A stretch of 64,000 bases of DNA from Elusimicrobia bacterium GWA2_61_42 (GTDB taxonomy: Bacteria; Elusimicrobiota; Elusimicrobia; Elusimicrobiales; UBA9959), in contig MGTU01000021.1 of NCBI GenBank assembly GCA_001799615.1, positions 27,268-91,267 of the forward strand. The letters run 5' to 3'. Position numbers and translations under genes: made by a program. The notes under the pieces were generated by a model. That model saw only the letters and a list, made by a program, of their open reading frames with translations. It ran no database searches and was not told the DNA's origin. The stretch's first letter is position 1; the number at the start of each line of letters is the position of its first letter. Shown in pieces: positions 3,551 through 49,035 of this stretch.

Positions 3551-3551
3551 C

Positions 3552-5240: not shown

Positions 5241-5266
5241 TATTTAATACAATCATTTAAGTAAAT

Positions 5267-9280: not shown

Positions 9281-9499
9281 ATGAAAGAGCGGTTCTACGC
9301 CCTCTGTTGCATATTTTTAAGTCCCGTTGCGGCTTGCGCCGTAGCGGCTTTTTTATTGGCTGACAGTTTAAAAATAGTTTTCCCGCTTTGTAACCTTTCC
9401 GTAACATTATTTATATATTATAATAAGATGGCACTGAACGTCCCGGCAATGGAAGGAGCACTCCTGTCTGGTCGTTCGTCGTCGTTTGTAAAAAACTGA
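9281..9499 (+). CDS. Putative leader ORF (72 aa; internal ATG 9428 gives 23 aa) abutting the giant gene
   Basis: Starts 3 nt after the aptamer, spans the terminator and ends TGA directly before the giant-gene ATG, in the same frame. Coding status is uncertain. Confidence 0.35.
   Translation: MKERFYALCCIFLSPVAACAVAAFLLADSLKIVFPLCNLSVTLFIYYNKMALNVPAMEGALLSGRSSSFVKN
9324..9354 (+). terminator. Intrinsic terminator, likely expression platform of riboswitch 1
   Basis: 10-bp stem CCGTTGCGGC-ttgc-GCCGTAGCGG (2 G-U pairs) followed by C and T6. Confidence 0.8.
9389..9421 (+). promoter_or_regulatory. Direct-repeat box TGTAAC-N5-CGTAAC plus -10 element (candidate internal promoter of the giant gene)
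   Basis: GTAAC at 9390 and 9401 (11-bp period). TATTAT 9416-9421 lies 10 nt after the second box; TATAAT also occurs at 9419-9424. Confidence 0.55.
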
Positions 9500-12400
9500 A
9501 TGGCGCTAAAAGGTAAGGATAAAGCGAAAAGTTTTGCGACCCGGCTGGCCCGGGCCGCGGCGCTTTGCTTTTTCTCCCTGACCGCGCTGCTGCTCCCCCA
9601 GGCCGAACTTTACGCCGCCGACTACGAATGGGGCGTGAAATACGCCATGTACGAGCTGCACGGCCGCAACTGGGGGTCCACGGCCGCCAGGACCACCATA
9701 GCTTTCCGCTTCACGGCCAAATACGACGGCACCGTGGACGAAATGAACATGATAGTGGGCCGCGCCCCCAACGCCAACCAGTCCATGCGCATCGGCCTGG
9801 CCTCCTCCCTGGGCGCCAACGCCGGGGCCCAGACCTTCCTGGCCTACGCGGACGTGAACCAGACCGGCGGCAATTCCGGCTACGCCTACTGGCAGGTGCA
9901 GGCCACCAGCGGCACCCCGGTAAACGCCGGCCAGGACTATTACCTGATCATGCGCCCTAACGCCATGACCAGCAACTCGGCCCTTCAGGCCGGCACGATG
10001 TTCGGCTATTCCAACGCCGACACGAAGGACGCGGCCGGCACCAACCTTATCTATCCTGACGGCGTTGCTGACAATAACCTGCAGGTCTATTACTCGAGGA
10101 GCAGCGTGGAGCCCTTCTCCCAGGTGCCCAACGCCATGCCCACCTTCGTCATCCGTTACGCCAACGAGGGGGCGGGCAACAGGTACCAGGGGCAGCCCTA
10201 TGGCGCCTTCCCCGTCAGTTCCGACGAAGCCCTGTCGACGGCAGAAGGCGGTATAAACACCGCCGTGCCCAGCTCTCTGGCGAACGTGCTGACCACCGAG
10301 AGCAATATTTACGGCTGGCGGGGCGTGGGCTATTACTTCACCGCCGACGCCGCTACCAGGAACATCGTAAAGGCCAAGATCTTCCTGCAGAAAGTGGGCA
10401 CCCCGGTGGACAAACTGAATGTGAGGGTGATCCGCGCCGCGCCTCCTTACGCGGTGGTCCTGGACACCACCGTTTACGCCGGGGCGGCGGACATCACCAC
10501 TACCTGGGGCTGGCAGCCGGCGGCCGGCAAATCGTTCCCGGGCGGCGTCTTTACCCCGGGGCTTTCCTATTACGTCTATTTCTTCTCCAGCGGCAGCCTT
10601 AACGGCAACCACTACCGCGTTTCGCTGATGGACCCCAAGGACTACGGCGGCGCCACGGCCGCCGGCGCCAACCTGGTCACCGCCAACGGCACGGCCGACT
10701 ATTACGTGGCCAACGCGGACGTCAGGAATTTCGCCGGCTTCGCCCGTCCTTACGCCAATACCTACGGCGACATCCCCATAGCGCTTACCTGCGACAACGA
10801 CCCGCCCGAAGTGGTGGTCACGCAGCCGCTCAATAACTCGGCGCGCAAGCTCATGGCGCTGATAGAGGGCACGGCCTATGATAATTATTACATCAGGGCC
10901 GGCGGCGTGCAGGTCTCCATCAAGAACATCACCACCACCAAGGTCTGGGACGGCGCCGGCTGGGTGGACGGCGAAGTTAACTGGCGTCCGACCACCGCCT
11001 TCTCGCCCAGCGAAGGGGCCGTCATCAACTGGTCCTACCCGATGACCTGGGTGCACAACAATAAGTACGAGATCAATACCAAGGTTGTGGACAGCGTGGG
11101 CAACTACGAAGGCAGCTGGTCTACCACCACTTTCTTCTTCGACGAGTACAAGCCTCCGCCCAACGAAGTGCCCGATTCCACCATGACCTTCCCGTCCAAC
11201 GGCATCTTCGTCAGCGCGCTCGACACTATCAGTGGCGTCGCGACCGACAACTCGCCCAACGGCAGGATCAGCCTGGTGAAGTGGATGATGTGGAAACTCG
11301 GCTCCTACTGGGGCGACGACAAGCTGTGGCACGCGGGCCTGCCGCCGGCCAACGTGGATACCACGTGGCTTAACTCCGACGACGGCTCCGGCTCCTACAC
11401 GGTGACCTGGCATGAGTACTTCGGCAGCGGCCAGATCCCGGACCCCGGCCAGATGGACACCGGCACCACCTATTATATAGCCGCCAGGGCCGAGGACAGC
11501 GTGGTGGGCCCGACCGGCGCTTACGATAAGAACAAGGAAGTGGTGCGGTCCACGTTCACTTTCTACTGGGACGCGGTGCCGCCCACCTCGGCCATCACCT
11601 ACCCGCAGAACAGCGGCGTGGCCGGCACCTCCCCCGTTTTCTACGGCACTTATTTCGACCAGCACGCCGGGATGTCCCCGGCCAGGGGCGCCGCCGTCAA
11701 GGTAAAACTTTACGACAAGACCGCCCAGCTCTGGTATCACGCCACCGGCTGGGACCCGGACGAGCCCACCCTCCTGGAGATGCCCGAAGCCGCCGTCTGG
11801 GCTTCTTCCTGGACTTATTCCCCGCCGTCCGGGCTGACCGGGGCTCACGAGTACCTGCTGGTGTCGATAGCCAAGGACGCCACGCAGCCCGGCAATTACC
11901 AGAGCAGTTTCGTCCTGGGTACTTCTTCCAATAACTTCGTCTGCGATAACCTGAACCCCGTCACTTCCATAGGCGTCCCCAACACGTCTTTCCGCAACCA
12001 GCTGGTCTCCATATCGGGCGCGGCGCAGGATTACCCGCAGCCCGGGCAGCTGAGCCGGGTGGAGATAGAGATAGTTCACCCGGCCGACACCCCGGCTTTC
12101 GCCTGGTCCGGCACGGCCTGGCTGCCCATTGTCGAGGATAATTTCAGCACCTATACTTATGTTTCAGGCGGCTACCCGACCTGGTCGTATACCCCCGTGG
12201 GCATAGGCTGGACCGAAAGCATCAAGTACCGCGTAAGGGCCAGGGCGCGCGATAACATAGGCAATATAGACCCGCTGTTCACGCTGGGTGTCAACGAGCG
12301 CCAGTTCCGCTATGACGTCTCCTTCCCTACCACAGCGGTCAATGTGCTGGTAGAGGACGGCGTGGAGCTGGCCACCCAGACGGTAAACAAGCTGCACGAC

Positions 12401-36400: not shown

Positions 36401-39400
36401 GGGCTTTCGCCCGCGCTTAATACCAGGGAGGGCAACAGGCCCGGCTACTGGCAGATAGAGGCCCGTTCCGGCGCCCTGCAGCACGCCGAACACCAGCTGC
36501 GCGTGGATCCCATAGACATCGCCAAGGTCTCTTTCGGCAACGCGCAGCGCACGCTGGTGGCCGGCAAGATAACCGATAACTTCGGCGTGCAGCAGCATTT
36601 CAAGGCCGAACTGCGCGATATGTTCGACAACCCGTCCCTGGCCACGGCCGCGGTGCGGGTCGCTATCTCTACGTTCACCCGCCAGCCTTCGCTGGTCAAC
36701 GATTCTTTCTCTTTCTCGGCTTCCACCGTCGCGGCCGCCGCCTTCCCGCCGGTCTTCGCTTCTACGGTGACCTACCTGGATATCCCGATCGATTCCTACT
36801 CCGCCACGTTCTATTACCTGGACACCACGGCTTCCAGCGTTTACGGCTCCACCCTGACGCTGCGGCCTTTGATAAAGCTCCAGGCGGACGACCAGCCGGC
36901 CTGGGCTTCCTCCACGCAGCCGGTGCACGTGCTGTCCGACTTCACCTACCGCGTGAACGTCAGCCTTAACGCCGGGCAGTCCGTGATGGCCGGCACCACC
37001 TCACAGATGTTCGCCATGTCCATAGAGGACAAGTTCGGCAACCCGACCCCCGTAGCCAGCGGCCAGGAGGACGCGATCGGGGCCGGCGTTTCGTTCAATA
37101 TGGATTCCGATTCCGCCGGCGACGTCAGGTTCTCGGCTCCCGACGTTTCCAGCTTCACGGTAAACCCCGGTTCCGCCAAAATGGCGCTGGGCGAGTCCGC
37201 CACCAGCTTCTACCTGATAGACACGCTGACTTCGCACCCGACGCACCAGCTCACTATAAATACCGTGATGGCCAAAGGCTGGCTGCCGGCCGTTTCCTCC
37301 TACACCGTGGTGCCCGCCCAGCCGGACCACGTGTATTTCCACACGACGCCCCGCCGCCTGGTGGCGGGAACCACGCTGCAGTACGCCGATTTTGCCCTCA
37401 ATCTCACCACGCCCACCGTGGTCAGCGTGGTGCTTAAAGACCGCTACGAGAACACTACCACCACCTCGTCGGTGGCTACGGTGCGCTTCTCGGCCGTGCG
37501 CAACACCACTTACGGCGGCATAGACCCGACCGAGTCGGTGCTGTCCTCCAACCCCAGCTGGAAGCTGCTGAAGACCAACCCGCTGGACCTGAGCATCTTC
37601 CCGGGCCAGAGCTTCGCCAATATCTATATCTGGGACACTATCGTGGGCACGGCCACCCTGACGGCGGACGCTTCCATCGCGGCGGACTTCGTGACTTTCC
37701 CCAGGATAACGCAGGAGGCGTATATCACGCCCAGCACGGCGGCTTACTTCACGCTGCACCACGCCTATAACCTGGGCAACCCCCTGCGCGTGCAGACCCC
37801 CGGCAACGTCACGCTGCGCGTCCGCGACAAGTTCGGCAATATTACCACCGGCGACACGGTGAACGGCAACTACTATACCGGCAAGATCAAGATGGCCACC
37901 AACTCCAGGGGGTCCGCTGACCTGCGCGACTGGCTGGCCAACACCACGGACTACACGTTCGTGCCGGCCGACCACGGCGAGCGCGAGCTGCTGCTGCAGG
38001 ATACCTTCGTGGAGACGCTCAAGGTCAACGTGACCGACTACCACAGCACCTCCATCTACGGCTACACCGGCGACAGCGCCCGCGGTATGCCGGTGGTCTC
38101 CAACGCCGACGTGGTGCTGTCCGGCCTGGTCATCACGCCCACGGACATGTCGCCCGAGGACCCGCTGCCCGTGGCGAAAGCGTCCATCGGCATCAACAAG
38201 TACGCCATGTACCAGGGCGACGGCGTCATAGCGGACGTGCCCGCCCCGGTGCCGATGCTGCGCCTGACCATGCAGACCTCCCCGATCGGCGCGCCGCCGG
38301 CCTACATGAAGTCGGTGCAGGTCAAGAGTTCCGGCACCCTGGCCTGGTCCGACATGGTGGAAGTCGCCATGTACGCCGACAACCCGACCTACGGCCAGAT
38401 CGGCGCTTTCGACGGCGAAACCGAGCTGGGCGGGGCGCCGGTGGATATCTTCATGTCCAGCGGCACCTATGACACCGGCCTGATGGCCTGGAGCTTCGAC
38501 GACCTGGCGGCCAAGGTGTCCACCGCCGCCCTGGTCTCCAACACGCCGCGCAACTTCTTCTTCGCCGTGCGCGTTTCCACCCTGGCCTCCACGCCGCGCA
38601 GCTTCGCCCTGGTGCTGGATAACCCGTCGTTCGTGGTGCTCAACTCCACCTTCGTCGGCGTGGCTTACAACAATTTCCCGATAGCCACCGCCACGTCGCC
38701 GGTGCGCAACCAGCCGGCCACCATTCAGATCCAGGGCGAAGACATCGCCGCCTGGTGGCAGCCTACCGTCGGCACCACCACGCTTACCCTGGGCCGGTAT
38801 CCTTACGTCGAGCAGGGCCAGGGCCGCGTCGGCTTCCTGGAGATCAAGGCCTGGACCGAGAATTTCATCGGCACCATAAAGTCGTTCAAGATCATCAAGA
38901 CGGGCACCGGCTCCGGCGCCGACCTCAGGAGCGTGCGCCTGTTCCTGGACTCCTCCGGCGGCGACCCTGACCTGGGCGACGGCATCTTCGCGGCCAGCAT
39001 CGACAAGGAGATCACCGACCCGCTGAACCCGCCGCTCTACGACGTCCTGGACCCGGACACCTTCGTGCTGCCGCTGATCAACCCCGGCATCGACGGCGCT
39101 ATTTCCGTCAGCACCCGCTCTTATTTCGTGGTCTACGAGTTCGGTTCCGACGCCATCTCCAGCATGACCCACGGCGCCCGCCTGGAAAACTCGGGCGTCA
39201 ACCTGGTGGACGGCGTGGTGGGCGCTTTCCAGCCGATAGTCTCCTCCACCGTGCCGCTTTACTCCACTGCGGACATAGTCTACCTGGTGGACGTGAACAA
39301 GTCGCAGCCCAACGATTTCTCCAAGCCCTCTTTCGTCACCCAGGACGACAGGGATAAGGCCGTGGTCAGGCTTACGATGCAGATCAACGGCTCCCAGGGT

Positions 39401-42400
39401 TCGGCCATCTGGAGCGGCCTCAAGCTGGACCGCTGGGTGACCGCGGCCGAGAACGGCAACACCCCGGTGTGGAACAAGGTCACCGACGTCAAGAAGATCA
39501 GCATCTGGCAGGACTCGAGCGGCAACGGCCTGCTGGAAACCACGGGTCTGGACAAGGATACCGAAGTGCTGATGATCGGCCCCAATCTGCGCACCTTCCC
39601 GTATGACGCGCTGAAGGCCCCCATCATGTCCACCGACACGGTCATCCGCGTGTACGACGTGCAGCGCTTCTTCGCGACCGACAGCCCTTTCCCGCCGGCG
39701 CCCGGCCGCCTTATCGTCAACGACGGCCAGGCCAACCCCGACCTGAAAGAGGTCATCTACTATTCCACCGTGGACGTGCTGGGCAACGCTTTCAGCGGCC
39801 TTACCCGCGGCGCCGAGGGGACCGTGGTGCCTTCCAGCTGGCCCGCCGGCACCATCCTCTCCGGCCAGGCCGTCCTGCCCATGATAGGCTCCGGCGGCGC
39901 CCTGGACGGGCAGGCTATCTATAACGTGGCCAAGGACTACTTCGTTACCTACGATATCGACCCGCTGGCCAACGTTTCCAATTTCGCGTATATCGGCATG
40001 GCCATCCGGAGCACGGACTATTTCATGATAGCCGCGCCCAAGCTGATGAGCACCGCCAACGTGGGCGTGACCGCCCCCGGCAAGTCGCTGTCGCTGATCG
40101 GTAAGGTGCGCGAATATTCCGACGAGGTTATCGTAAAGGCCACCGACACCATACTGGGGCCGACCTTGCAGCAGCAGGGCGTGGACCAGCCGGTCATGGC
40201 TTTCACGCTGGAGACCAACGTGGCCGACGCCATGTGGCGCTGGCTGACCGTTTACGCCACGGGCACCGTCATCCAGGACGGCACGGCCATCAACGACATC
40301 TCCGTGGTCAAGGTCTGGTACGACAAGGACAATAACGGTTTCCTGGGCGGCAGCGACGTGATGGTCGGGTCCGGCACTTTCGGCAATACCATCTACGGCC
40401 CTCTGACCGCCAGGGTGGACTTCGGGACCGAACAGCGGATAATTACGGCCCTCGAGGCCGCGAACAGCGCCATTTCGCACCGGTATTTCCTGACCTACGA
40501 CATCCGCGATTCGGCCATGCCTAACGACGCGCTGGGTAATCCGCGCTACCTCGGCGCCTACCTCAAGGCGGAATCCCTGCCCCAGGGCAGCCCTATCGTG
40601 GACGATCCGCGCAAGAACGCGCTGTCGCTGCCCAATTTCTTCTCCGCGGTCAACTCCAACCTGACCTTCGTTTCGAGGGTAAGGGAGATCATCTCGAGCC
40701 CCAGCACGGTGACCGTGCTGACCGAGCCTATCTTCTCGCCCGACTACTCCGCCTCCAAGCTTTCCGTACGCCTGGCCGACCACGTCAACACCATAGTGGC
40801 GCAGGACTCCAACTGGGTGGTCACTTCCACGGTGGGCCTGCCTTCTTCCGGCTACGCCGTGGTGGACAATGAAATAGTGCATTACGCCGGCACCACGGCC
40901 GGGGCGCTCAGCCTGGTCACGCGCGGCGCCTTCAACTCGCCCATCATCACCCACAGTTCCGGAACGGTGCTGGGCGGCATGATCTACCAGGGCATGATCA
41001 ACTACCCGTTCATGCAGATGACCCTGACCACCTCGGGCTACGGCGTGCGCTGGGTGGGCCTCAAGCTGTCGCGCAAGCAGCCGGCCAGCCTGGTAGGCTA
41101 CGACGACGACGTGGCCGTGGTAAGGGTGTGGAAAGACAACGGCAACGGCGTCTTCGACCGCGACGCGGCCACCGGTCTTAATACCTCCGATGTCATCGTC
41201 GGGTCGGGCCGCTTCGGCGCCAACGACCCGGTGGGCAAGGCTACCATCTACGTGAAAGACCCCGCGCTCAACGACCAGAACTACGTGGTAGTAAAATCCA
41301 CGCCCATCCTGATCTTCGTTTCCATGGACATCGACAAGGCGTCCAGGTTCTCCAACGTCCTGCTCAGCCCGCAGAACGACGTCCTGGGCGTGGAGATCCC
41401 CTTCGAGACCAACTTCCTGTTCGGCCCGGAGAATTCCGGCCATACCGCCCAGTTCCTGTCGCCCGCCCTGAGCCAGCTTAACGCGCTGCTGCCGACGCTG
41501 AACAACATCACGCTGACGCCCGAGGACATCTCGCCCGTCAGCGTGACGCAGAACGACAAGAACGTGGGCGTGCTGGCCATGCGCCTGGTCACGGACAAGA
41601 CCTCCGCGCGCGTAGAGGCCATAAAGCTGGACCGCCGCGGGTCCGCCAACGACTCGGATATAGACCTGATCAAGGTCTGGAAGGATTCCAACGACAACTG
41701 CATCCTGGACTCCGTGGACACCTCCAGCAGCGGCGCCGGCGTCTACCCGAACCTGGCCAGCTACGGCAACGAGTCCTTCTCGTCCAGCACCGTCAATATA
41801 GCGCTGAAGAACCCCATCGTGGTCACCACCAACCCGGTCTGCGCTTTCATCAGCTACGACATGTCGCAGTTCGCCATTATCGGCAGCACGGCCGGGCTTT
41901 CCATCAACTCGACCGCTTACGTGACCATAGGTATTCCCAACACGGTCACGCTGACCACCTGGCCCGTGAATACCATGCCCATGGTGGTCTGGGAGATCCC
42001 GTCGAACGTGGCGCTGGGCGCCAACGACGTGGCCAACGAGCTGGTGCTGGCCGGCGGCGTCAACCAGGCCCAGCTCAAGGCCCCGATGCTGAGGTTCAAC
42101 CTGGCCACCGAGGCCGGCAACGCCCGCTGGAGCGCCATAAAGGTGCAGCGCACCGGCGCTTCCAACGACCCGAACGCGCCGTTCGGCAAGAATACCGACG
42201 TCAAGCTGATAACCATTTACCAGGATTCCAACCAGAACGACATGCTGGACGTGAACGACGTGAATATTTCCGAGGCGAGGAGCATCATCCTCAACGCTTT
42301 CACGTCCACCGACACCCTGCCGTTCAACCTGGTGCTGGCCTCCACCGCCGGTTTCCCCGTTTCGGGCCGGCTCTATATCGAGGAGGCCGAGCTGGTGTCT

Positions 42401-44974
42401 TATGACGGTTCCGGCATAGACGCGGGCACAGGCAAGCCCTATCTGCGGGTCTTCGCGAGGGGGGAGAAGCTGGGCGACTTCTATACCCCGGTGGTCAACC
42501 ATCCTTCGCGCTCCCCGGTGCGCAAGGTGGACCTGTTCGACCAGGAGAACCCGCTGAACACGCAGACTTATATCAACCTGTCGCAGGTCCAGACTTTGAG
42601 CCCGCTGCCGCAGACGTACTTCTCGGTCTACGACATCGGCGAAATGGCCATCAAGGCCAACAAGGTCGGCATGATGATCCGCGACAAGTCGTGGATAGTC
42701 GTCAACGCCCCGCACGACGTTTCGCCCAGCGTTTACGTCGGCATCACCAAGGCGCTGCCCAAGGGCACGTACTCCGAGATCTACCCGTTCAACTCCAGCC
42801 TGGTGCCGATCAAGGCCGTCAACCTTACGGTGACCGGCATCAGCATCGCCCCGAAGTCGGCGGAAAAGAACACCAAGAGCGTCCCCGTTATGACGTTCAA
42901 TATGGCTACGCTGACGGACTACGTGGCGCTGGGCCAGATCAACCTGCAGCAGACCGGCAGCATCAGCAGCGCCACCTTCAACTTCGGCGACGGCGACCTG
43001 GCCGGCGTGGCCCTGTGGAAGGACGACGGCGACGGCGCTTTCAGCCCGATAAGCGACGCGCGCCTGGGCTACACCGTGCATTCCGCCACCAACACCTTTG
43101 AACTGGGGGTCTCCGTCTCCATCCAGGACGGAAACCTGCCGTACCTGATCATCTCCACCTCCACGGTGATCCTGCACCTTTCCTGCGACATCAGTTCCGG
43201 CACCGACCTCTCTGACTCCGACACGATGGGGCACCTGGCCGGGCTGACGCTGGGTTCCTTCACCGACCTGCGCGGCATGGGCGGCATGCAGCTGGCCGCC
43301 GGGCAGTATTACGCCGACACTTACCCGATGGAATCCAACCAGATCCTTATTTCTCCGGCCATCATCCCGCTGACGCCGGTCTACAGGCCGATCATGCTGG
43401 CCTCCAACGGCTACCCCGCCTATACGCAGGTGGATTCCAGCGGCAACGTGAAGCTGGGCTTCGGCAATATCCCGGAGACGGACACCACCTTCTGGGACTA
43501 TACCCACCCGCCCGCGGGCTGCCGCGCCGGCGAGCCGCTGATAGACATCAACGGCGACATGATCCCGGATAACTTCGACTATTACGGCTCCGGCAAGTGC
43601 AATAACATCAGCCTGAACAACTCCGGCCTGCCGTCCTTCGATATCGACGGCGACCACCTGCTGGACTTCGAGAGCAACCTGGACTATGTGCCCGACAGGA
43701 TCATTAACGACGGCACGGGCAAACCGCTTTACTTCATCGGCGACAACGTGCAGAACGTGAAGATGCTGCTGGCGGTCTCCGACCTGGGCGCCGTGCCCTC
43801 GGTCTGGGCGGCCAAGACCACGGAACTTACCGCGATGTGGAACCCCGCTTCCACCACCAGCGCCGTGGCCTATGAACTTTCGCTGGGCGGCAGCTTCTCC
43901 GACCCGACCGGCATTAAGAACGCCTGGCAGCCGGCCGGCACCTCGCTGGCGGGCAAGCTGACCAACGTGGCGCTGTCACCCGGGCATTTCACCCGCCTGG
44001 CCAGCCGCATAGACGTCAACACCTCTTCGTTCTCGGTGATCTCGGCGGCCGGCTTCGCCGCCGAGGGCGTCGTCTACGTGGGCAACGAGATCATGGTGGT
44101 GACCAAGATCGACGACGGCACTTTCAAGATCAACCAGCGCGGCGTGCAGGGCTCGTTCAGGGGCCCCCATACGGCCTGGGGCGAGACCGTGTCCGACCGC
44201 GGCTACGTGCTGAGCGTGCGCGGCCAGATGGCCGACGGCCGCTATATTCCCAGCGAGAGCGGCGTGCCCATAATGATCTACCGCATCGATACCACCTACC
44301 CGACCAACCCCGGCGCCCCCGAGCCCCAGGTGGCCAAGGGCGTGGCTTCGGGCCAGGCCTATACCCTTAAGTGGGACTCCGCCGAGGACCCCGAGTCTAA
44401 CGTGATGTCCTATGAAATACAGGAACGCGAGGGCACCAACCCCGTCTGGAAAACGGTGGCGGCCATCCCCGGCTTCAAGACCGGCGGCGCCATAAACAAT
44501 ATCTACACCATAGGCGACCCCGTGAACCCCGGCGAAACCCCCAGGCCGCTGGGCAAGTACTATACCTACCGCGTGCGCAGCTGGAACTTCGCGGGTATAC
44601 ATTCCGAGTGGTCCCCGGTCTCCACGCCGGCCGGCACTACCGTAGGCGAGGAGCTGCTCAGCAAGGTGTCCAACTACCCTAACCCGGTGGACCTGCGCAA
44701 AGGCGGCGTGGAAGGCAGGACGGTCATCAATTACACCCTGAACGATAACGCCGAGGTCACTATAACCATCTACGACCTGCTGGGTTATATCGTGCGGGAA
44801 TTTACCTTCACCAGCGGCACGGACGGCGGCAAGCTGGGCCCTAATTTCGTGATCTGGAACGGCCGCAACGGGCTGGGCGGCTATGTTTCCAAGGGCGGCT
44901 ATATAGTAAGGGTAAAGGCTTCCAGCCCCAAGGGCAGCAAAGTGATAATGCGCAAGGTCGGAGTTATCCACTAA
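9500..44974 (+). CDS. Giant secreted Ig-like repeat protein (11,824 aa), putative adhesin with FN3 and T9SS-CTD/FlgD-Ig-like C-terminal domain
   Basis: Uninterrupted ORF with strong codon bias. About 39-aa Sec signal peptide; about 50 repeats P-x-S-x-I-x2-P...ISGTA-x-D...YW-x-G-x2-W...RA-x-D-x-AGN (10793-31485); a second Ig repeat type (31486-38130); Ca-loop beta-sandwiches (38131-43370); FN3 (44297-44623); C-terminal SNYPNP...IYDLLG...WNGRN...GGYIVRV...KVGVIH (44648-44974). Confidence 0.93.
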   Translation: MALKGKDKAKSFATRLARAAALCFFSLTALLLPQAELYAADYEWGVKYAMYELHGRNWGSTAARTTIAFRFTAKYDGTVDEMNMIVGRAPNANQSMRIGLASSLGANAGAQTFLAYADVNQTGGNSGYAYWQVQATSGTPVNAGQDYYLIMRPNAMTSNSALQAGTMFGYSNADTKDAAGTNLIYPDGVADNNLQVYYSRSSVEPFSQVPNAMPTFVIRYANEGAGNRYQGQPYGAFPVSSDEALSTAEGGINTAVPSSLANVLTTESNIYGWRGVGYYFTADAATRNIVKAKIFLQKVGTPVDKLNVRVIRAAPPYAVVLDTTVYAGAADITTTWGWQPAAGKSFPGGVFTPGLSYYVYFFSSGSLNGNHYRVSLMDPKDYGGATAAGANLVTANGTADYYVANADVRNFAGFARPYANTYGDIPIALTCDNDPPEVVVTQPLNNSARKLMALIEGTAYDNYYIRAGGVQVSIKNITTTKVWDGAGWVDGEVNWRPTTAFSPSEGAVINWSYPMTWVHNNKYEINTKVVDSVGNYEGSWSTTTFFFDEYKPPPNEVPDSTMTFPSNGIFVSALDTISGVATDNSPNGRISLVKWMMWKLGSYWGDDKLWHAGLPPANVDTTWLNSDDGSGSYTVTWHEYFGSGQIPDPGQMDTGTTYYIAARAEDSVVGPTGAYDKNKEVVRSTFTFYWDAVPPTSAITYPQNSGVAGTSPVFYGTYFDQHAGMSPARGAAVKVKLYDKTAQLWYHATGWDPDEPTLLEMPEAAVWASSWTYSPPSGLTGAHEYLLVSIAKDATQPGNYQSSFVLGTSSNNFVCDNLNPVTSIGVPNTSFRNQLVSISGAAQDYPQPGQLSRVEIEIVHPADTPAFAWSGTAWLPIVEDNFSTYTYVSGGYPTWSYTPVGIGWTESIKYRVRARARDNIGNIDPLFTLGVNERQFRYDVSFPTTAVNVLVEDGVELATQTVNKLHDLTEIKGYYQDYPPASDGSWGGINVFIEKIDGKPLGDPFCWDGANGFWRSDVCPVKNAGVTGWYFDASDITWATGTARTDPLDPLTSYSAWSNGGVFRIRTEGRDTAVPGNTLQMAGNREKIGVYADLPYIDLTYDPKKPTSKLTNVPANGYANTLPVLEGTASDRDTTVNYVPRIAGVKLHIFDLSNTKTFNKNTLEWDEDDGDLLFDDDHWVDAAFVGYSSGTWSYNITDAKWAHGSTYRVIPKTFDDSGNYEVGLDTRTFTFDVYQPMPSEAPSSLIGFPPDDYHANTRASLAQVTGTAKDNPPIGKVLGLKIIMKRIVEGTTSYFTGGTWAAGDIPENASSWYNATAVTPPFDTSAEPYTYALPPIVDDDMWEPNVVYYLYTECRDWAGNYEHVRTTQTFVYEIKHPTATVTYPVTDGYVSSGGKVEGVALDTWPGKVNNVFVRIKRNVDSWYWDSANTTWTDAGAPDVWNDVSLHGTLSLNNTWWQLGPTTWETGQLYTVDAKAVDKAGNWQIVYSTALRVAADFAVPSSSVTYPANGDDLTTDLTLISGSASDALPGRVNRILLSYYKVTAPAGFWDRTAGNWSSAVELFYDGTVLVGQDKWQATGASTPTWVTTDAGVDYQIFAKAVDAANNEVVKPGSPALNSPLVQFKLRTPLPLSYILTPDGTLPHWKPNPSNSIVGTAIFSSTVQLRIVDYGGDFLVGGGDDLVYDGASWLPAGPPNDTLFIGVQSFDGSTWQHTLPSAHWNGNRKYNVKSKAWLNLIPENPGTGTDFIIDATPPAAAVSNPGQAYMKALTVLEGAVSDTPPGALQYTYFRVKRQLEEKFWNWQTSTFTALSGGYTDLVPQTVIGGLASYTTDYFVSGAAWEANQSYVVQFYSTDKANNLGTAAPMPFTLDISSPSSGLVVPLAANKGGIKSMPYISGTAYDFWRSTAVEVAVRRLSGTQRWYDGGGFNVSGAVPYWLDVNNTAGFLSPDATSWMYRPADLDGDLDTGGLYLILSRARDVAVNSQDQFTSNISSMVVKVDQSAPTSLIVYPADDTGGVSGRYKPGVVGQDDIRGTAADNPGVNYAGVSDVKVRLSYLEGVTTYYWFGGAFVAVSSETAWLNTALDGSSAPPWIWEYTGMVLWPAADKEYLLETKGRDLARDADDGVGGNGNVEAWPYSSRRFIVDGTPPSVVITTPSALALKTLTRIDGTADAALAGNRWTDIRISTNGTDGLKYWDDAAIPPGWVSADQTWNQSTTLGPTSWYYTVNPDMLKDDVVYTVSARALDYAGNYSVLFSTYIFTYDITQPAVSVVFPLNDTAYSQIKISTPLAGASLQAGQSSANTGVSTVAVQVTDLDGGPACFNGAAWDVCPAWLPAGGNVGSWNYARAALGFANDHRYRVEARATDFAGNDSSVASLFFRYDIERPTTTLTYPLPGLTTGFAYVSGTASDERFGVHLYEAKLSSYTVKVAVKRLTDPAGWWDLASGEFDGGNPNWYEANNSTTVAPNRFLYNLPAAMITKMTDPGNQDPAVTYRIVSWGYDLALNREFGAQGSEPLDADIPPGVGTNVTFDSEKPVTAITMPNVAAHNLVPNITGTADDNVRVSEVRFTAFLPGLGKYYNPAANPVWVEGTEDAAPWLAAQSTIYQTSAAWTYNIQTSTWVSGYTYRVRARARDDSGNYDTVYATATFLYDTAAPESSISEPAAGAHINTLPLTLVGASYDTHASGVNQIKLYVERLIGTVTYYWDTSSWQTTETYLPIAPPYANWTRLMEDSMLIDGELYKVYTDARDNALNQEGVGLKTSFVYDVSHPTAAIFYPYNNGFISATGKVSGGTYDKPNGTVNDVLVRVKKLTGTVDVGKYWSVNGSSWTVDNTANSVVSYGTLSPGATWWQLNADPYPWATNETYEMNAWAYDKAGNYQFIYATATNVTADFTNPVSTITSPLHGVTIEAEIDSVSGNASDANLEKVLLSYRKMDTLRYWNLATHAWDSVPELFYPAALIGNNWTATGASTPTWIAPLAGMDYQIFAKAVDKALNEVPKPGLPGPLSSFIQFTLKPPPPVSAITTPDLSVPHYKPVPAPQVIGTAVYATTVAVRVVDYGPDLVSGGADNLAWNGADWLPASVFTGFAGVDNYVAPNWQWTIPSAKWNVNRRYRVISQASHEVNLTVETPGVGVEFIVDSTAPSAGVTMPDKTYMRSLTALAGTLSDVAPGDAASAYFRVKRQGLAEYWNWQASTFTALNGQYTDLPAALAWNETLKTGTAQYTTGYFLAGLAFEQDRSYSVELYVNDKAGNPGSAAAFPFSIDVSSPVARVLNPVDANKKGLRVLDGISGTASDNWLNSDVQIAMQQWDNSNNLWYGFDGLSWDFNQASPYWISMKTNGSLSNDATSWMYAPGGLDGKFTPGISGYKYMLLSKAVDTAGNAQSQYTVDVSSVLITMDKADPSSVITLPLDDMTGAGGRYKAVNIGKTATASRFNGTAKDDAYDQNNSGVAAVQVRLSYLLSNDTYYWNQSNLNFSSWTVTAATAWAGCLLGGSAPNWTWTFLTDISWPAGDREYKLESRAMDDARASDDTGEGNWEEPVSRGVNVKYFIVDDTPPTVVITTPAASAVSALPGFGGDAAALIAGLNTVQVQVSTGTGINTRYWNGAAWQATEWPALNDTKLGPTSWYYTLSPLALKDDVAYTFVARALDYAGNVSAEYSTYTVTYDITGPLVSLSFPVNNTTYSQILLSTPLAGTATNNQTAAFSGPSTVAVAITDLVNSTCFNGASFAGCSDSLWLPAQNTVAAWTFTDKDLSFISDHNYKYEARSADAAGNYSGVTSVTTKFDLDIPTSTVTGPMTEYVKALTVITGTAQDERNGIRTYEASLGTYTVKMAIRIVGGNWWNGSTAFDSANPKWYEVAVNTAPYGSGDPVVGWQYLVPADVQGVMAGLSGSPPYLRSYLLVPWAYDLAQNREFGPGGMDPVNTDVPGGVGRILKFDNILPVSVTTAPANISYKRSVLSLYGVATDTGVVTGVQVLVKARGGFSATWKGTYANNLSDWDFSESTKYLNWVNAVYANGGWSIPLPALSPVNNSKISVWTRATDVAGNVENTPSDAQIIANLNFNGTPAYYFTFDDLIPETGVTAPDRYALSVATGIIAGTAFDAGTEPSNVSEVLVRLRRSDDKYWSFYNSNWTSANPTDVFNMDGTNNWTKGVPVTSQDDGYAYYVYHYAKDNALNNTSGAYFSTFTFIVDLTTPTSRITFPAHNSFIGSVPAIAGTADDAVENLQGWTSPRNYEAGISTDTGVDLAIQRLTDDKWWDGTGFGAGARQWKLTVFTGASSGTWVYNLPGGAIADGTTYYAMTRVRDLVGNIQTIYTTNYFTGDTTPPDSRATAPTGSLSNILVISGTAQDTLPGELLGSNMVRIALRKITAPQACYDNASNSWTGCPAFAYPNDRIWFTTGTVNDVRGQPGNWTWNTSAIGWANGHSYDIQALAIDKAGNVRCQADPAACPGQNSPDLTFSFVSPAANTFINTPDTEMGNYRGSTPAGVSDLQSIIGNGTNLRASGSVQIRIKRLKEPVAWWYQGLTEHYWLATDTYTFVNATAGAWSLGISGLEAFTVDNATYTFSTVGYNSANEAQSPPTNRTVIVDNTMPLGAVLSPGKPYINSMPVISGTAADPGREALAAAYREGMNRVLVMIRDDAGKYWNGQTFDTFMSSSNILADQTLNWSTATAVTAAMRDGRSYTVFGKPEDKAGNRDDNEGSAPSYSVIYDTTTPKSWIAQPAPLSILRSLDSIAGTAMDPAGTYGPLKSDLVRVELQIYEESTPKWWHHGTSNWSVTSSSFNAVTGTDNWNYTNPALPPRLTSGWYYILQSRAVDAAGNNQAGFINNISSLTFIWDVTPPVTFLVQPMNGENYKPSALTGVNALNGTASDAVLPYTTDHLSKVQMNLSYLDTGVTYYWNDASFTNAISSEAAWVEVVGTATWRRTFDGVSTLYGQSFGNWISDKDYTLMIRAFDTAAPLGVNGGNEQDPLTIARFVVDGTPPVSRVSTPTANSFIQGTLPEISGTSYAGRSGQAAFPNGLKLKISNDVAGDTYYWNGHTAQGWSSGTPVELPVQYTSSQSTITWRYPPATYDAPTILINSQDYTISIAGIDKAGNTETAAEITVTSDFNYPVISISTPMAGASSFYGPSRPTGLLTGNSADTPAQILPPIKIQLSNISEPGAVKPKWDGFVWTVVTSTWLGVSDLSPWTYPQPAWPSNKRLKAEFWAVDYAGNQVPDSTYTREFIYDVNKPSSTIAAPSAAFHTAAQVAAFSGGAADWINTSTEAMSGLTPDGIEIQIVEPSGNKFNGVGFAVGDYWRKTTFATTTFTNDGVFGLDIVTAANWTYPRSPDAWPPALVEKSTYTVRVRSTDRSLNTENYVEKSFCYDASAPTATITMPGNFAYVAMPVISGTLLEQASYPDPADGIQVVVQRVSDLNYWNGAVFEKDTANFPPDGFNPAVHWRNATTIGAASWSLAEPALNTYFNSLRASNASLQFRLYLRAKDIAGNQSRAGAGTPANPEVSFTVDPIVPSSKVTYPSSGAYVNAPITRIGGTATDTSLGVPSGLNSVRLRFSKLNLGGTRYYYNWVLNNWGTDSAAWIFTPVDLALDPWNRTIPASAFTGDSTNNGDGYRFEVQSETKDKTQVPNGGPNTEVLYATSTFVMDLSTPTAAIQQPPHLSYFRALSSLSGTSEDVVATPVGGPAGGGGIPSGLASMEYVLTDTDRLPNRYWDFNAGAWSASYVSSVTAPGASWTMAALPANFPPSAAASWAVTRSSATFLLKMKFTDNAVNVSSFTVNYSTFTLDLILPVSKVTSPGVEDGFQLVVSSIVGTATDFTSGISTVQVRIQQDTAQTDCTDTSANGRYWGGSAWQAGEKWLGVNSYTPGDTSWTLDTSAVVFKAQCYYVIKSSAVDNVSNGELNWGSRRFKFTPPPAFTRVTVPDNLKYYKAVTLISGTANADAESVALQVRRLSNNDYWNFGTSSWQVALTSASGIAPAGGAWTYNTNLPPLVSGSSYTFRAIGKSFSEVDESAPATNQVYFDTLKPEAFVQVPDSGQLYYNSLPKLGGTATDPPGATPPASGISRVWAEIADVNGPSAGKFWDNATSTFTAVWNQAGNQGVYYIAASSWTYSVAYPTAAYTNGVQYQVRAKSLDNTYNNSSPEGTESDFSGGNLFSFDVTVPTAVVTAVSAAQSRSGVAVASGTILEDLVIVNVGLQPGVQIQGIRVHLKDNNLVQYWNGGGWDSNPAVWAAAAVHQSSWSLSSLPAWADDGSYTVWAEASDKAGNTQTVFAGNGSSVTFTVDKAAPTLAVLNPAANTKISTVLSVSGTANDPNYGTNSGIAGPANIQAQVSYLLAGDTYYYDNAATFSSFTLSDTNSWWPATTWTPQGPSSGTWIYDPAGLTASMVPDKVYRFRARAQDNAIPVPNPAVLTANAVTNLNVIYDVTPPVSRITFPYDLARIRTLVSIAGTSQDNLAGISTLGQLGVSIAEKSPAGGHWNGVYPGTFTLTSEVFQPLSAASLAASYDGLTWSFTAPNLRDGYTYIIKVRASDDVTPANTEAVISSVTFTYDTTPPAAAITYPYTLPDSRGNLKALVTVSGTAYEQFVIRSASISVQEADTLLYYDTQFSTFNSLGQKWITAGIDVSPGPNYTWSVAAPPLTDNKNYNLQVTANDAAGNALTPGSPIVVRYDVSAPLSRPVLPVNNGFIKSLTQVTGTAADINSNPSGISGSQVKIQRNIDSLYWNGSTWGTEAWLDPMGGTPWTKNTQLPPSDNFSGLHDTRQYTVMTRAYDVAGNTQSVILAGNVFTFDISSPTAFVSLPLDGSRYNTLPQVSGTAEDLFNVNFPQVRLYDIPLNKFWMEGTGSCGGAALPGWVGPSCAAFPEIWNVALDSSSASGSFNWGYNSSALPWPDRDHELRVEAKVADQAGNYTFTSSTFSYDATPPGSRILYPPVNDLLYSSMTAISGTSLDLTSAVNEVRIRLWYLSGPSTYYWQPTAPHWSASDTGWQSIGGAPGPKATLNPWSYTNSDFSNPGTVNFAWKEGTHDGENGKTFQIITRAVDATTNEETTVSTRTFVFDNVPPVSAPVQPGIDTAYRNLPVIHGTSVDAVTTVASVKISILGQDEGGGQKYFDGSNFINVTETWLPIQPANLYPSSWSYTNGLLTLLDKRHYIVKSSATDSIGNVQNIVGQSRFLFDTTEPQSVVVSPVNATVYNDNKVVLGNSSDPGFTNGINGTGSGVYPSLPWHSGKVDALVFRDTEPFLASNGPIIYGAWDDSGYFWNGSTWAAAAAGPVWQAGQFTDSLGNWQYSGLVCPDPNPTNIPCWVRGDPYVSWVRVTDNAANTETIIDQGPKFYIAAPAQSFLVTVSADPMTAGSDINMSVTAKDGPNGTGNTAAAYQGLANFYLDGVPGGPEVMDTDGVMDNYHGLPQQYLFLPGDFGTRTFQMRARKAGGRVLRAEDNDNPAIFGTRNITVNPTTPDRVQVIADFDPSGQQPAPGRMDFGVEGSTGAPRTKPAGSNVPFLLQVTDMYWNLVVSSAASVYVSDTDTNNDSISADGLVVFTGSTTISRTFVSANSAGWGVTASGQGLYTNPRNPSSNVPVIAQAADRLLALLPGETRVQGKAYVQPYGKTGTPDDRLAGSTLPVTVYGVDPYYNTDITAAFQVSAAITSDPYDITPAPQNLVSGATVFVFVPVVAATQTIKTESSSLSPATSVYFTPNPVKVWWNRPAKLHLIPAGQALDAGRPPYSSNPSGGGKSGSSYALQAGVTTQMAVYLVDDYYNVVRGTTPFMVDVASNTPVIQVDFLNDPNIQGRGMHPTPYQKSLVAGATNFSVIPVTRNQTTGLSVRVTDTGLTSTFYSTDTVNGVIVNPAPAVNMLLLVPNEVAAEGVPGGKTGTAGPLVAGSTYTVSVRAVDTYGNLTTDGRMVRIISNDIYAVHPPAQPMAGGIAMINGFVPSAATNNMVIDALDDDSVTPKLSTGTDSGVVVAPGTASRLIVLLPTQYLVPGKTVPPYGVAGSISTQTAGVYFTASVYAADTRYNRVYGIAKSNIRATSDDAFAPNLGFFEMTDGSATITNISLRSAGFRTVTATDLSGSLPNLGATPSGTFLLNPNNPTKLRTMVPVETRVGGSTGNGRTGVVDGQQAGFPFTVTVDIADAFWNLTPGASQEIRLVCNDPFSIVSPSTQVVLGSATFTVTPKRAGPTYVRAEMVAAVPAWGPTLNVDTATLVNVAAGIPRRMLLLMPGETFDQGSPTGKVGSLGEQKAGTDFGVTVGVVDDFFNLVPGRPADVRVNTPSDPYAPAVSTAAINTGSGYTDLMYVNLHKAATHYLTATDYGSSGLSDDPQSSTFTVRPADPVGLQLLVPGQTAVPGSGAYPAGGKVSVISTQTAGTPFYVTVNLVDPYMNRYTDLTVGPTVYLVTSDIYDAETSSSALNYGTLQMQMNLVTRTSASTIKVFPVSAADNNVCSGNFGDVCLGSDAAAKASLKVFSSTATRLEVVLPGQGLAEGKCNISPPCRDPMISWPGRTGPPAAHTIGTGAMFASVYVTDQFYNRATELVAAAQDTNPVAVMPSVEISMPGDFKTLKPSPQTLSNGSAVFSIDARTALSSYTVVGATIAASAASYATGISTIAVNPGPPTHMLYVLPSTTVVAGFPFSATLIVRDIYENNCSTGPNVYLGTAAFAMVDQINPNQDSSLSAPTVPFYRSDLAVKDLPGWFTFRKAGVNTMGAYDTLNPMVNVTPLVNVAVLPGPPNIYRVEPNADVEVGAGSNDLRGQKVMTAQLSDAFDNNISSSGVPAYLDIAEVVGDTGTLQYQSGASWLYMGVSTIVYTDLNGQVGISTPMAYRVSSKAGDWARVWIGTTTVAGPAAYATYVAARQNVSGKMTTIGGVPSKLLFISSQPAATVGIQEVAGAGAPFTLERRDYFNNLTTEGQTDVFLSLPSAQVSIHTALGRTMGTFGTFGDYGFRGPMNDQFIPVASILPNQTNVSFRYHDRTSSYSGLSPALNTREGNRPGYWQIEARSGALQHAEHQLRVDPIDIAKVSFGNAQRTLVAGKITDNFGVQQHFKAELRDMFDNPSLATAAVRVAISTFTRQPSLVNDSFSFSASTVAAAAFPPVFASTVTYLDIPIDSYSATFYYLDTTASSVYGSTLTLRPLIKLQADDQPAWASSTQPVHVLSDFTYRVNVSLNAGQSVMAGTTSQMFAMSIEDKFGNPTPVASGQEDAIGAGVSFNMDSDSAGDVRFSAPDVSSFTVNPGSAKMALGESATSFYLIDTLTSHPTHQLTINTVMAKGWLPAVSSYTVVPAQPDHVYFHTTPRRLVAGTTLQYADFALNLTTPTVVSVVLKDRYENTTTTSSVATVRFSAVRNTTYGGIDPTESVLSSNPSWKLLKTNPLDLSIFPGQSFANIYIWDTIVGTATLTADASIAADFVTFPRITQEAYITPSTAAYFTLHHAYNLGNPLRVQTPGNVTLRVRDKFGNITTGDTVNGNYYTGKIKMATNSRGSADLRDWLANTTDYTFVPADHGERELLLQDTFVETLKVNVTDYHSTSIYGYTGDSARGMPVVSNADVVLSGLVITPTDMSPEDPLPVAKASIGINKYAMYQGDGVIADVPAPVPMLRLTMQTSPIGAPPAYMKSVQVKSSGTLAWSDMVEVAMYADNPTYGQIGAFDGETELGGAPVDIFMSSGTYDTGLMAWSFDDLAAKVSTAALVSNTPRNFFFAVRVSTLASTPRSFALVLDNPSFVVLNSTFVGVAYNNFPIATATSPVRNQPATIQIQGEDIAAWWQPTVGTTTLTLGRYPYVEQGQGRVGFLEIKAWTENFIGTIKSFKIIKTGTGSGADLRSVRLFLDSSGGDPDLGDGIFAASIDKEITDPLNPPLYDVLDPDTFVLPLINPGIDGAISVSTRSYFVVYEFGSDAISSMTHGARLENSGVNLVDGVVGAFQPIVSSTVPLYSTADIVYLVDVNKSQPNDFSKPSFVTQDDRDKAVVRLTMQINGSQGSAIWSGLKLDRWVTAAENGNTPVWNKVTDVKKISIWQDSSGNGLLETTGLDKDTEVLMIGPNLRTFPYDALKAPIMSTDTVIRVYDVQRFFATDSPFPPAPGRLIVNDGQANPDLKEVIYYSTVDVLGNAFSGLTRGAEGTVVPSSWPAGTILSGQAVLPMIGSGGALDGQAIYNVAKDYFVTYDIDPLANVSNFAYIGMAIRSTDYFMIAAPKLMSTANVGVTAPGKSLSLIGKVREYSDEVIVKATDTILGPTLQQQGVDQPVMAFTLETNVADAMWRWLTVYATGTVIQDGTAINDISVVKVWYDKDNNGFLGGSDVMVGSGTFGNTIYGPLTARVDFGTEQRIITALEAANSAISHRYFLTYDIRDSAMPNDALGNPRYLGAYLKAESLPQGSPIVDDPRKNALSLPNFFSAVNSNLTFVSRVREIISSPSTVTVLTEPIFSPDYSASKLSVRLADHVNTIVAQDSNWVVTSTVGLPSSGYAVVDNEIVHYAGTTAGALSLVTRGAFNSPIITHSSGTVLGGMIYQGMINYPFMQMTLTTSGYGVRWVGLKLSRKQPASLVGYDDDVAVVRVWKDNGNGVFDRDAATGLNTSDVIVGSGRFGANDPVGKATIYVKDPALNDQNYVVVKSTPILIFVSMDIDKASRFSNVLLSPQNDVLGVEIPFETNFLFGPENSGHTAQFLSPALSQLNALLPTLNNITLTPEDISPVSVTQNDKNVGVLAMRLVTDKTSARVEAIKLDRRGSANDSDIDLIKVWKDSNDNCILDSVDTSSSGAGVYPNLASYGNESFSSSTVNIALKNPIVVTTNPVCAFISYDMSQFAIIGSTAGLSINSTAYVTIGIPNTVTLTTWPVNTMPMVVWEIPSNVALGANDVANELVLAGGVNQAQLKAPMLRFNLATEAGNARWSAIKVQRTGASNDPNAPFGKNTDVKLITIYQDSNQNDMLDVNDVNISEARSIILNAFTSTDTLPFNLVLASTAGFPVSGRLYIEEAELVSYDGSGIDAGTGKPYLRVFARGEKLGDFYTPVVNHPSRSPVRKVDLFDQENPLNTQTYINLSQVQTLSPLPQTYFSVYDIGEMAIKANKVGMMIRDKSWIVVNAPHDVSPSVYVGITKALPKGTYSEIYPFNSSLVPIKAVNLTVTGISIAPKSAEKNTKSVPVMTFNMATLTDYVALGQINLQQTGSISSATFNFGDGDLAGVALWKDDGDGAFSPISDARLGYTVHSATNTFELGVSVSIQDGNLPYLIISTSTVILHLSCDISSGTDLSDSDTMGHLAGLTLGSFTDLRGMGGMQLAAGQYYADTYPMESNQILISPAIIPLTPVYRPIMLASNGYPAYTQVDSSGNVKLGFGNIPETDTTFWDYTHPPAGCRAGEPLIDINGDMIPDNFDYYGSGKCNNISLNNSGLPSFDIDGDHLLDFESNLDYVPDRIINDGTGKPLYFIGDNVQNVKMLLAVSDLGAVPSVWAAKTTELTAMWNPASTTSAVAYELSLGGSFSDPTGIKNAWQPAGTSLAGKLTNVALSPGHFTRLASRIDVNTSSFSVISAAGFAAEGVVYVGNEIMVVTKIDDGTFKINQRGVQGSFRGPHTAWGETVSDRGYVLSVRGQMADGRYIPSESGVPIMIYRIDTTYPTNPGAPEPQVAKGVASGQAYTLKWDSAEDPESNVMSYEIQEREGTNPVWKTVAAIPGFKTGGAINNIYTIGDPVNPGETPRPLGKYYTYRVRSWNFAGIHSEWSPVSTPAGTTVGEELLSKVSNYPNPVDLRKGGVEGRTVINYTLNDNAEVTITIYDLLGYIVREFTFTSGTDGGKLGPNFVIWNGRNGLGGYVSKGGYIVRVKASSPKGSKVIMRKVGVIH
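12812..21304 (+). repeat. Tandem 11-domain super-repeat (about 1,426 and 1,405 aa) inside the giant CDS
   Basis: Domains 1-11 of 12812-17089 match domains 1-11 of 17090-21304 in order, e.g. TGASTPTW...DYQIFAKAVD and YDLA-x-NREFG occur in both. Confidence 0.85.
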
Positions 44975-45080: not shown

Positions 45081-45130
45081 TTGACATGTCAAGGGGGTGG
45101 CCTTGACAAACCAGTTCTATCTGCTATAAT
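45081..45130 (+). promoter_or_regulatory. Sigma70 promoter with upstream palindromic operator (copy 2)
   Basis: TTGACA 45103-45108, 16-nt spacer, TGc-TATAAT 45125-45130. TTGAC-at-GTCAA 45081-45092 with the same 22-nt offset to the -35 as copy 1. Confidence 0.8.
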
Positions 45131-49033: not shown

Positions 49034-49035
49034 GA

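Follow-up and report, generated by a model that had tools for sequence, protein, structure and literature searches.

The stretch of DNA analysed here (hereafter the window, 64,000 nt of contig MGTU01000021.1) belongs to Elusimicrobia bacterium GWA2_61_42, an uncultured, flagellum-less groundwater bacterium with a genome of 2.95 Mb in 34 contigs (94.8% complete). Its largest feature is a giant open reading frame (ORF; 9500..44974), which comprises 11,824 codons without any internal stop and encodes a protein of 1,267 kDa with a pI of 4.7. The ORF accounts for 55.4% of the window and for 1.2% of the genome. Three genes for membrane proteins are located upstream of it, and a gene for an outer membrane barrel of the PorV/PorQ family as well as a cassette with FliG-, MotA- and MotB-type genes follow downstream. 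Predicted riboswitches for cyclic di-GMP (c-di-GMP) precede both the giant gene and the barrel gene. All features of the window described below are encoded on the forward strand.

Domain map of the giant protein

A first-pass annotation had read the gene product as a surface filament of three zones filling 55% of the window, composed of a signal peptide, two tip domains, about 50 Trp/Tyr-rich Ig-like repeats of about 130 aa, a second Ig type with PG(E/Q)...GK-x-G loops, about eight larger sandwiches, an FN3 domain and a C-terminal sorting domain (CTD), and devoid of catalytic, RTX and heme motifs. This description held, with the exception of the tip, for which the beta-rich character was confirmed, but neither the fold nor the number of domains. 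The Sec-type signal peptide (approximately aa 1–39; 9500..9616) can be read off the sequence as a K/R-rich start, a hydrophobic stretch (AAALCFFSLTALLL) and the motif LYA|AD, with cleavage probably after LYA, and is kept in the orthologues and in three homologues of the tip. The N-terminal tip itself (aa 40–441; 9617..10822) is a region of about 400 aa found in few lineages; its AlphaFold2 (AF2) model, built on a six-sequence alignment, reached a predicted local distance difference test score (pLDDT) of 47.

The tip is followed by the stalk (zone 1, aa 442–7321; 10823..31462), for which iterated hidden Markov model (HMM) searches of the protein itself counted 53 tandem BIg-type domains. Each domain is approximately 130 aa long and follows the consensus P..P...GTA.D...YW...W...W.Y...Y...A.D.AGN...F..D, with 3.4% Trp and 5.0% Tyr in the zone as a whole. 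In the PDB, the zone 1 profile matched the BIg extender domains of SiiE (2yn3, E = 3.5e-7) and MpIBP (RII, 4p99, 9.4e-5) as well as 5irb (5.5e-3), which supports a secreted, very long, multi-domain surface filament. From the domain count, a fibre of more than 200 nm is a reasonable estimate. The mean pairwise identity among the zone 1 domains is 21%, as in other long tandem arrays. A single, ancient duplication of a nine-domain block was observed within the stalk (domains 8–16 versus 19–27; 13622-21256), with an offset of 11 domains and 36–51% identity against the 21% background. A titin-like periodic super-repeat was considered and rejected, since the signal at offset 11 is real but originates from this one duplication, and the rest of the array is aperiodic.

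Zone 2 (aa 7446–8566; 31835..35197) consists of nine repeats carrying the motif LPGE/Q..G..GK(T/S)G...AG...V.V..VD.Y.N, the second Ig type of the earlier description. It is distinct from zone 1 (hhalign probability 0.4%). The WD40 matches of its profile in the PDB were judged spurious, and no other credible PDB match was obtained. The adjoining zone 2b (aa 8567–9540; 35198..38119) is beta-rich, conserved and collinear in homologues, with no recognisable repeat or family. In zone 3 (aa 9541–11290; 38120..43369), the larger beta-sandwich modules, whose acidic loops follow the pattern (V/I)W.D.N.N..D, are found in six clear copies (aa 9936–11233) and two marginal, in-register copies (aa 9580–9828, independent E of approximately 0.15 each), which fits the expected number of about eight. 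Both zone 3 and the C-terminal domains contain inserted small barrels of approximately 70 aa, four in total (39610-39868, 40768-40978, 42284-42526 and 43991-44203), with the motif E(I/L).x.Y...RG...H..G..V. Weak PHROG matches were obtained for two of the four (E = 3.7e-5 and 7.6e-4), to baseplate wedge or tail fibre proteins of phages, and none for the remaining two.

Downstream of zone 3, motif reading revealed two acidic loops that resemble EF-hands, with the sequences DINGDMIPD (aa 11349) and DIDGDHLLD (aa 11381; 43544..43666 for both). Six of their residues (D710, D714, D718, N754, D756 and D760 in the numbering of the modelled segment) are invariant across 66 sequences, and the region combines high pLDDT with little secondary structure in the AF2 model; the loops may bind calcium. 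The FN3 domain (approximately aa 11600–11715; 44297..44644) was assigned by its strands in the AF2 model and by PDB profile matches to FN3 domains of titin (1.2e-13), contactin and gp130 (both at 1e-5). The protein ends with the CTD (aa 11716–11824; 44645..44971), a seven-strand beta-sandwich of 109 residues in the AF2 model with the terminal sequence KVGVIH. The model of aa 10640–11824, calculated from a 66-sequence alignment, is all-beta (pLDDT 88.3, predicted template modelling score (pTM) 0.67) and places three large sandwiches, the loop-rich acidic segment, beta domains with a small inserted barrel, FN3 and CTD in this order. Foldseek searches with it against PDB and BFVD returned generic Ig/FN3 arrays only (TM-scores of approximately 0.1), because the query contains many domains.

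The motifs GGxGxD (RTX), CxxCH and HExxH are absent from the whole protein. Pfam and NCBIfam yielded only marginal matches to Big_3_x, Big_13 and OmpL47-barrel models, and Pfam segment scans at E ≤ 1 remained without match for the tip, zone 2b, zone 3 and the acidic-loop region.

Integrity, selection and family of the gene

The ORF is one genuine gene under selection over its full length. No DNA repeat within the gene exceeds 180 nt at 73% identity, and repeats as diverged as these, on the DNA as well as on the domain level, make a repeat-driven mis-assembly unlikely. With the tip as query among 40 relatives, orthologues were found as intact frames of 11,806 and 12,469 codons in GWA2_62_23 and SKS1.bin123, two genomes assembled in other studies. 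Counted from the start codon, the proteins comprise 11,783 and 12,449 aa, respectively, and are collinear with the window protein over the whole length, with 53 and 58 stalk domains and, downstream of these, 9 + 6 units as in the window gene. Sequence identity among the orthologues is 61–71% over the first 3,500 aa and rises up to 76–88% in the C-terminal core. The dN/dS ratio ranged from 0.12 to 0.43 in all 24 windows of 500 codons. The two collinear, independently assembled orthologues and the purifying selection along the entire gene rule out the chimeric assembly that the first-pass annotation had left to be considered.

That the long frame is nevertheless an artefact of repeat assembly or a decaying pseudogene is extremely improbable. 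Such a reading could draw on a near-identical version of the protein in a second assembly from an almost identical organism, P0001 (6,869 aa, on a contig of 107,750 nt), which runs out of frame after aa 6841 owing to a deletion of 20 nt. In both orthologues the reading frame is kept at this site, and dN/dS stays below 0.45 downstream of it as in every other window. The deletion represents either a population variant or an error in the other assembly, and gives no sign of a spurious long frame. It corresponds to window positions ~30023-30042 (aa 6842–6848) and lies between CGGC microhomologies; P0001 additionally carries the substitution T5673P. The giant protein is among the few complete bacterial proteins of more than 10,000 aa whose length is backed by independent assemblies and by selection on the whole gene. 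Proteins of at least 10,000 aa were reported to be frequent in Elusimicrobiota in a survey of the PVC group and Elusimicrobiota (West-Roberts et al., bioRxiv 10.1101/2023.11.21.568195). That survey gives size statistics and mentions neither PorV, MotA nor c-di-GMP; the family of the giant protein, its core, its CTD/PorV pairing and its regulation are not described there.

Twelve giant proteins from across the Elusimicrobiota, each of them cut N-terminally at a contig end, are collinear with aa 7301–11824 of the window protein (4,524 aa; 31397..44971) at 30–68% identity. Their N-terminal arrays differ, some containing zone 1 repeats and others 27 to 32 zone 2 repeats. The C-terminal module is encoded at 253 loci in contigs representing one genome per species. 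Among the best 80 of these 253 loci, nearly all belong to Elusimicrobiota, and the frame runs past the upstream flank of 10 kb in 77 of the 80. Of 24 genomes from the same genus, only three encode the tip, which matched just three representative clusters among 1.84 billion proteins; in each of these clusters, signal peptide, tip and zone 1 repeats follow one another. Such rarity and lineage restriction would be expected if the tip determined specificity. Judged by these comparisons, the protein consists of a conserved core of 4.5 kaa with the CTD, to which a length-variable stalk and a tip that can be exchanged are added; the three zones of the first-pass annotation in fact represent a phylum-wide core bearing a stalk and tip that vary. 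Pfam recognises next to nothing of either the core or the tip, which makes both of them targets for structure determination.

A lineage-variable tip would also suit partner specificity in a fibre for contact with prey or host, by which an episymbiotic or predatory cell captures or attaches to another cell, and a link to predation has been drawn for giant genes of Omnitrophota (bioRxiv 10.1101/2023.11.21.568195). The first-pass annotation had named such a contact fibre as one option, beside a tether and a gliding adhesin. We consider a contact fibre very improbable in the present host: the protein carries no lytic, catalytic or pore-forming motif, the genome of 2.95 Mb is not reduced, and the genes in the neighbourhood do not point to predation.

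Proposed C-terminal sorting, barrel gene pairing and predicted riboswitches

The layout of the protein corresponds to that of a type IX secretion system (T9SS) cargo of type A, with a Sec signal and a beta-sandwich of approximately 80 to 100 aa at the extreme C-terminus (aa 11720–11824 in the AF2 model). The CTD scores 27.7 bits with FlgD_ig (PF13860, cut-off 27), and an NCBIfam scan of the C-terminus returned type A-related models only. The conservation of the CTD is strict, its C-terminal motif is invariant, and the same domain ends 22 ORFs of the host genome. The PorV-family model produced 27 matches in this genome, which are distributed over about 24 distinct ORFs. In 13 of the 22 CTD cargo genes, a PorV-family gene starts 74 to 432 nt downstream on the same strand; pairing of one cargo with one barrel is the rule in the host genome. 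The partner encoded behind the giant gene (45256..46872) is a PorV/PorQ-family outer membrane barrel with a C-terminal TPR arm (NF033709, 105.9 bits, cut-off 90). It is presumably the anchor for the CTD of the giant protein. Among 68 homologous loci, a PorV-family gene is found not more than 700 nt from the stop codon of the giant gene in 34.

The candidate for a translocation channel is a distant homologue of SprA/Sov, a 1,838-aa ORF without Pfam match on another contig of the genome (C22:40371-45884, minus strand; L001:7372-12885, minus strand), which matches TIGR04189 with 115 bits. Its neighbours (ComF-like, GreA-like and G6PD genes) are unrelated. An equivalent ORF of approximately 1,800 aa was present in all 31 relatives, which cover five genera, and absent from the 14 control genomes. 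A search of the genome with PF14349 (SprA) gave no match, and its control search was equally silent. The SprA-like ORF is a candidate for a minimal T9SS-like translocon in Elusimicrobia, as a distant homologue rather than an equivalog. A PorU sortase was not found: matches of NF033707 in the genome are confined to model positions 955–1094, the CTD of PorU itself, and do not include the catalytic region. In Porphyromonas gingivalis, PorV and PorQ hold PorU and PorZ on the cell surface, and cargo of a porU mutant remains bound to PorV (PMC5562754). By analogy with P. gingivalis, and since PorU is lacking, the CTD of the giant protein is probably retained on the barrel encoded downstream, with the C-terminus as the cell-proximal anchor. 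If the predictions hold, T9SS-style sorting with CTD cargo, PorV-family barrels and a distant SprA-like protein would occur outside Bacteroidota/FCB in a stripped-down form with one barrel per cargo, a set that bears on the origin of type IX secretion.

Two units of the locus have regulatory regions of the same type. The giant gene is preceded by a perfect sigma-70 promoter (8969..8996; TTGACA-16-TATAAT with extended TG, 12 of 12 matches) and, 227 nt upstream of the ATG, by a c-di-GMP-I riboswitch aptamer (9200..9273; Rfam RF01051, 58.8 bits, gathering score 35), the position of which is kept upstream of both full-length orthologues (L086 1200-1273 and L089 1283-1357). The hairpin located 3' of the aptamer (9324..9357) resembles a terminator, with a 10-bp stem including seven G-C pairs followed by CTTTTTTATT, and is likely the expression platform. 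Minimum free energy folding of the leader singled out neither an ON nor an OFF polarity. An identical sigma-70 promoter (45103..45130) and a second c-di-GMP-I aptamer (45173..45251; 58–59 bits), which ends 4 nt before the start codon, are found upstream of the PorV-family gene, and an aptamer between giant gene and PorV gene was detected in five of five syntenic loci tested. Thus, the giant gene and the unit of barrel and motor genes are each under predicted c-di-GMP riboswitch control, which is conserved. Adhesins under the control of c-di-GMP riboswitches are known, e.g. CD2831 (PMC6447587). The leader of the giant gene between promoter and aptamer (9003-9187) is G/U-rich and contains many GCGGT/GCGGTG repeats, which are without counterpart in the PorV gene's leader.

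The combination of architecture, sorting domain, barrel partner and regulation suggests that the giant protein is probably a c-di-GMP-gated, PorV-anchored long-reach adhesin, with the adhesion itself being what we infer. The signal peptide would take the chain through Sec, and the T9SS-like CTD would direct it over the outer membrane, possibly through the SprA-like protein. Without PorU, the CTD would then remain bound to the dedicated barrel encoded directly downstream, in the same way as PorZ on PorQ and PorU on PorV. The conserved core would form the base of the fibre, and the 53 BIg-type domains a stalk, probably stiffened by calcium. The stalk would hold the lineage-specific tip roughly 200 to 300 nm off the cell, where it could bind a surface or another cell.

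Several observations weigh against such an adhesin or parts of it. The CTD scores below the cut-offs of the dedicated T9SS models (TIGR04183, 18.9 bits, cut-off 23; PF18962 Por_Secre_tail, 17.5 bits, cut-off 27), and the SprA-like ORF stays below the equivalog cut-off of 200. GldM and GldL, the motor that could power the export, were not matched in the genome, in searches without a positive control. Adjacent pairing is not universal, as no PorV gene follows the giant gene in 25 of 50 homologous loci with sufficient flank. The frameshifted P0001 implies that at least some genomes or assemblies are without a full-length product. Finally, the strong conservation of the core suggests more than a passive spacer.

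The last of these points, a core conserved phylum-wide beyond the needs of a spacer, would fit a protein that is shed or self-associates through its core and builds a matrix, sheath or S-layer-like coat at high c-di-GMP. Matrix production is well suited to c-di-GMP control, the pTM of 0.67 over 1,185 residues suggests rigid packing between domains, and half of the family members lack an adjoining barrel. Against a matrix or coat stand the strictly conserved CTD with its invariant terminal motif and the usual pairing with PorV-family genes in the host genome; moreover, a long stalk with a variable tip at its distal end is how an adhesin, and not a lattice, is built. A released or coat-forming protein is improbable on this evidence, and the anchored adhesin is retained as the preferred reading.

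Such an adhesin would share with the PorZ-PorQ and PorU-PorV pairs of P. gingivalis a CTD protein held by a non-covalent complex with a PorV-family barrel (PMC5562754), a likeness that is inferred for the giant protein. Unlike in Porphyromonas, there are 13 gene pairs of cargo and barrel, PorU is missing, and the cargo is a 1.27-MDa fibre instead of a processing enzyme. SiiE of Salmonella, MpIBP of Marinomonas and the LapA-type adhesins of type I secretion systems (T1SS) likewise project a binding region on dozens of tandem BIg extenders. LapA-type adhesins are also under c-di-GMP control. In contrast to these proteins, the giant protein possesses no RTX repeats, no T1SS signal and no adjoining T1SS genes (ABC/MFP/TolC). 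Compared to SiiE and LapA, its topology would be inverted, with the C-terminus as anchor and the N-terminus as distal tip, and c-di-GMP would act via riboswitches rather than via a protease switch of the LapD/LapG type as with LapA. The probable inversion, T9SS-like sorting free of the canonical motor and sortase, the riboswitches and the core not recognised by Pfam are what sets the protein apart from known giant repeat adhesins.

Downstream motor cassette and upstream membrane proteins

The PorV-family gene is followed by a cassette (47084-54199), in which the first gene encodes a 649-aa protein with the middle and C-terminal domains of FliG and TPR (47084..49033; FliG_C 84.7, FliG_M 41.1 and TIGR00207 106 bits). 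The second gene product (49113..51431), a protein of 772 aa, belongs to no known family; it matched nothing in Pfam and NCBIfam scans and is syntenic in 24 loci. MotA (51779..52567; MotA_ExbB 99 bits, MotP/MotA/PomA models 220–239 bits), a MotB/OmpA protein (52627..53415; MotB_plug and OmpA) and a CarboxypepD_reg-like protein complete the cassette. FlhA is not encoded in the host genome (valid positive controls), and consequently the FliG and MotAB genes are not flagellar. The order of giant gene, PorV-TPR gene, FliG-type gene, gene for the 772-aa protein, motA, motB and CarboxypepD_reg-like gene recurs in 24 of the 50 loci for which 9 kb or more of downstream flank is available, and persists down to approximately 40% protein identity. 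In the other 25 loci, housekeeping genes follow the giant gene, e.g. those for a peptidyl-prolyl isomerase and DnaJ at L070. Where the cassette is unlinked from the giant gene, it was found elsewhere in the genome in nine of ten more distant Elusimicrobiota, preceded either by a small ORF of CTD-like type or by an RND pump. The motor cassette is therefore an autonomous module, not specific to the giant cargo, which adjoins the giant gene in one large lineage. In two loci of Endomicrobia (L092:10555-10797 and L094:10388-10639), a short CTD-like coding stretch without any large cargo precedes the PorV-TPR gene, which may be a CTD-only mini-protein or a remnant.

The cassette raises the possibility that the anchored fibre is coupled to a motor. 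The PorV-TPR, FliG, MotA and MotB proteins would energise its export or would pull, rotate or translocate it, with a proton-driven stator and a rotor acting via the periplasmic TPR arm of the barrel, similar to GldLM moving SprB in Flavobacterium gliding. This would extend the adhesin reading and not exclude it. Motors driven by the proton motive force (PMF) power both T9SS secretion and the movement of SprB (PMC8986121), and in the host genome no GldL or GldM was detected that could power a T9SS-like route (searches without positive control). The conserved gene order in nearly half of the loci, the conserved riboswitches on both units, the non-flagellar nature of FliG and MotAB and the presence of the cassette in nine of the ten genomes in which it does not adjoin the giant gene point in the same direction. 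The 25 loci with housekeeping genes behind the giant gene and the position of unlinked cassettes behind other ORFs argue against a cargo-specific motor; the cassette could equally energise all 22 CTD cargoes. Furthermore, the cassette has its own promoter and is thus not co-transcribed with the giant gene, and physical coupling is a supposition. On balance, motor coupling of the fibre is a tentative possibility.

A further step would be to regard fibre, PorV-TPR barrel, FliG-type rotor protein and MotAB as one c-di-GMP-gated envelope machine, which exports or drives the 1.27-MDa filament via a T9SS-like route made up of the SprA-like and PorV-like proteins. As a whole, this machine is rather unlikely. 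If it existed, flagellar-type force generation would have been re-used in a flagellum-less phylum as a third output of the FliG/MotAB pair, and an evolutionary bridge would be given between flagellar and type IX/gliding motors. In any case, with the giant protein the non-flagellar FliG/MotAB cassette of Elusimicrobiota gains a defined cargo, and the function of the cassette becomes testable because both units are predicted to respond to the same small molecule.

The closest known parallel is SprB of Flavobacterium johnsoniae, a gliding adhesin of 6,497 aa and T9SS cargo, whose secretion and motion are linked to a 5:2 motor driven by the PMF (PMC8986121, PMC9870892). Both proteins are huge, repetitive, beta-rich filaments with a signal peptide, a C-terminal sorting domain of T9SS type and a neighbouring gene for an outer membrane barrel. 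SprB carries a type B CTD and has a partner of the PorP/SprF type, whereas the CTD of the giant protein is FlgD_ig/type A-like and its partner, a barrel of the PorV/PorQ family, carries a TPR arm. GldK was not found in the genome, where generic FGE-domain matches reached no more than 66 bits (cut-off 350). With GldL and GldM also undetected, again without a positive control, the nearby motor genes are those for MotAB and the FliG-type protein. The two proteins differ in addition by phylum and by the riboswitch control of the giant gene.

The region upstream of the giant gene (3456..8972) codes for three polytopic membrane proteins in tandem, with TPR matches. The order of these three genes is kept in front of both full-length orthologues. 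As suggested by a weak, sub-threshold match of the third protein only to PMT_2 (GT39-like, 19.6 bits), they may be glycosyltransferases that, as a dedicated set, glycosylate the Ser/Thr-rich fibre.

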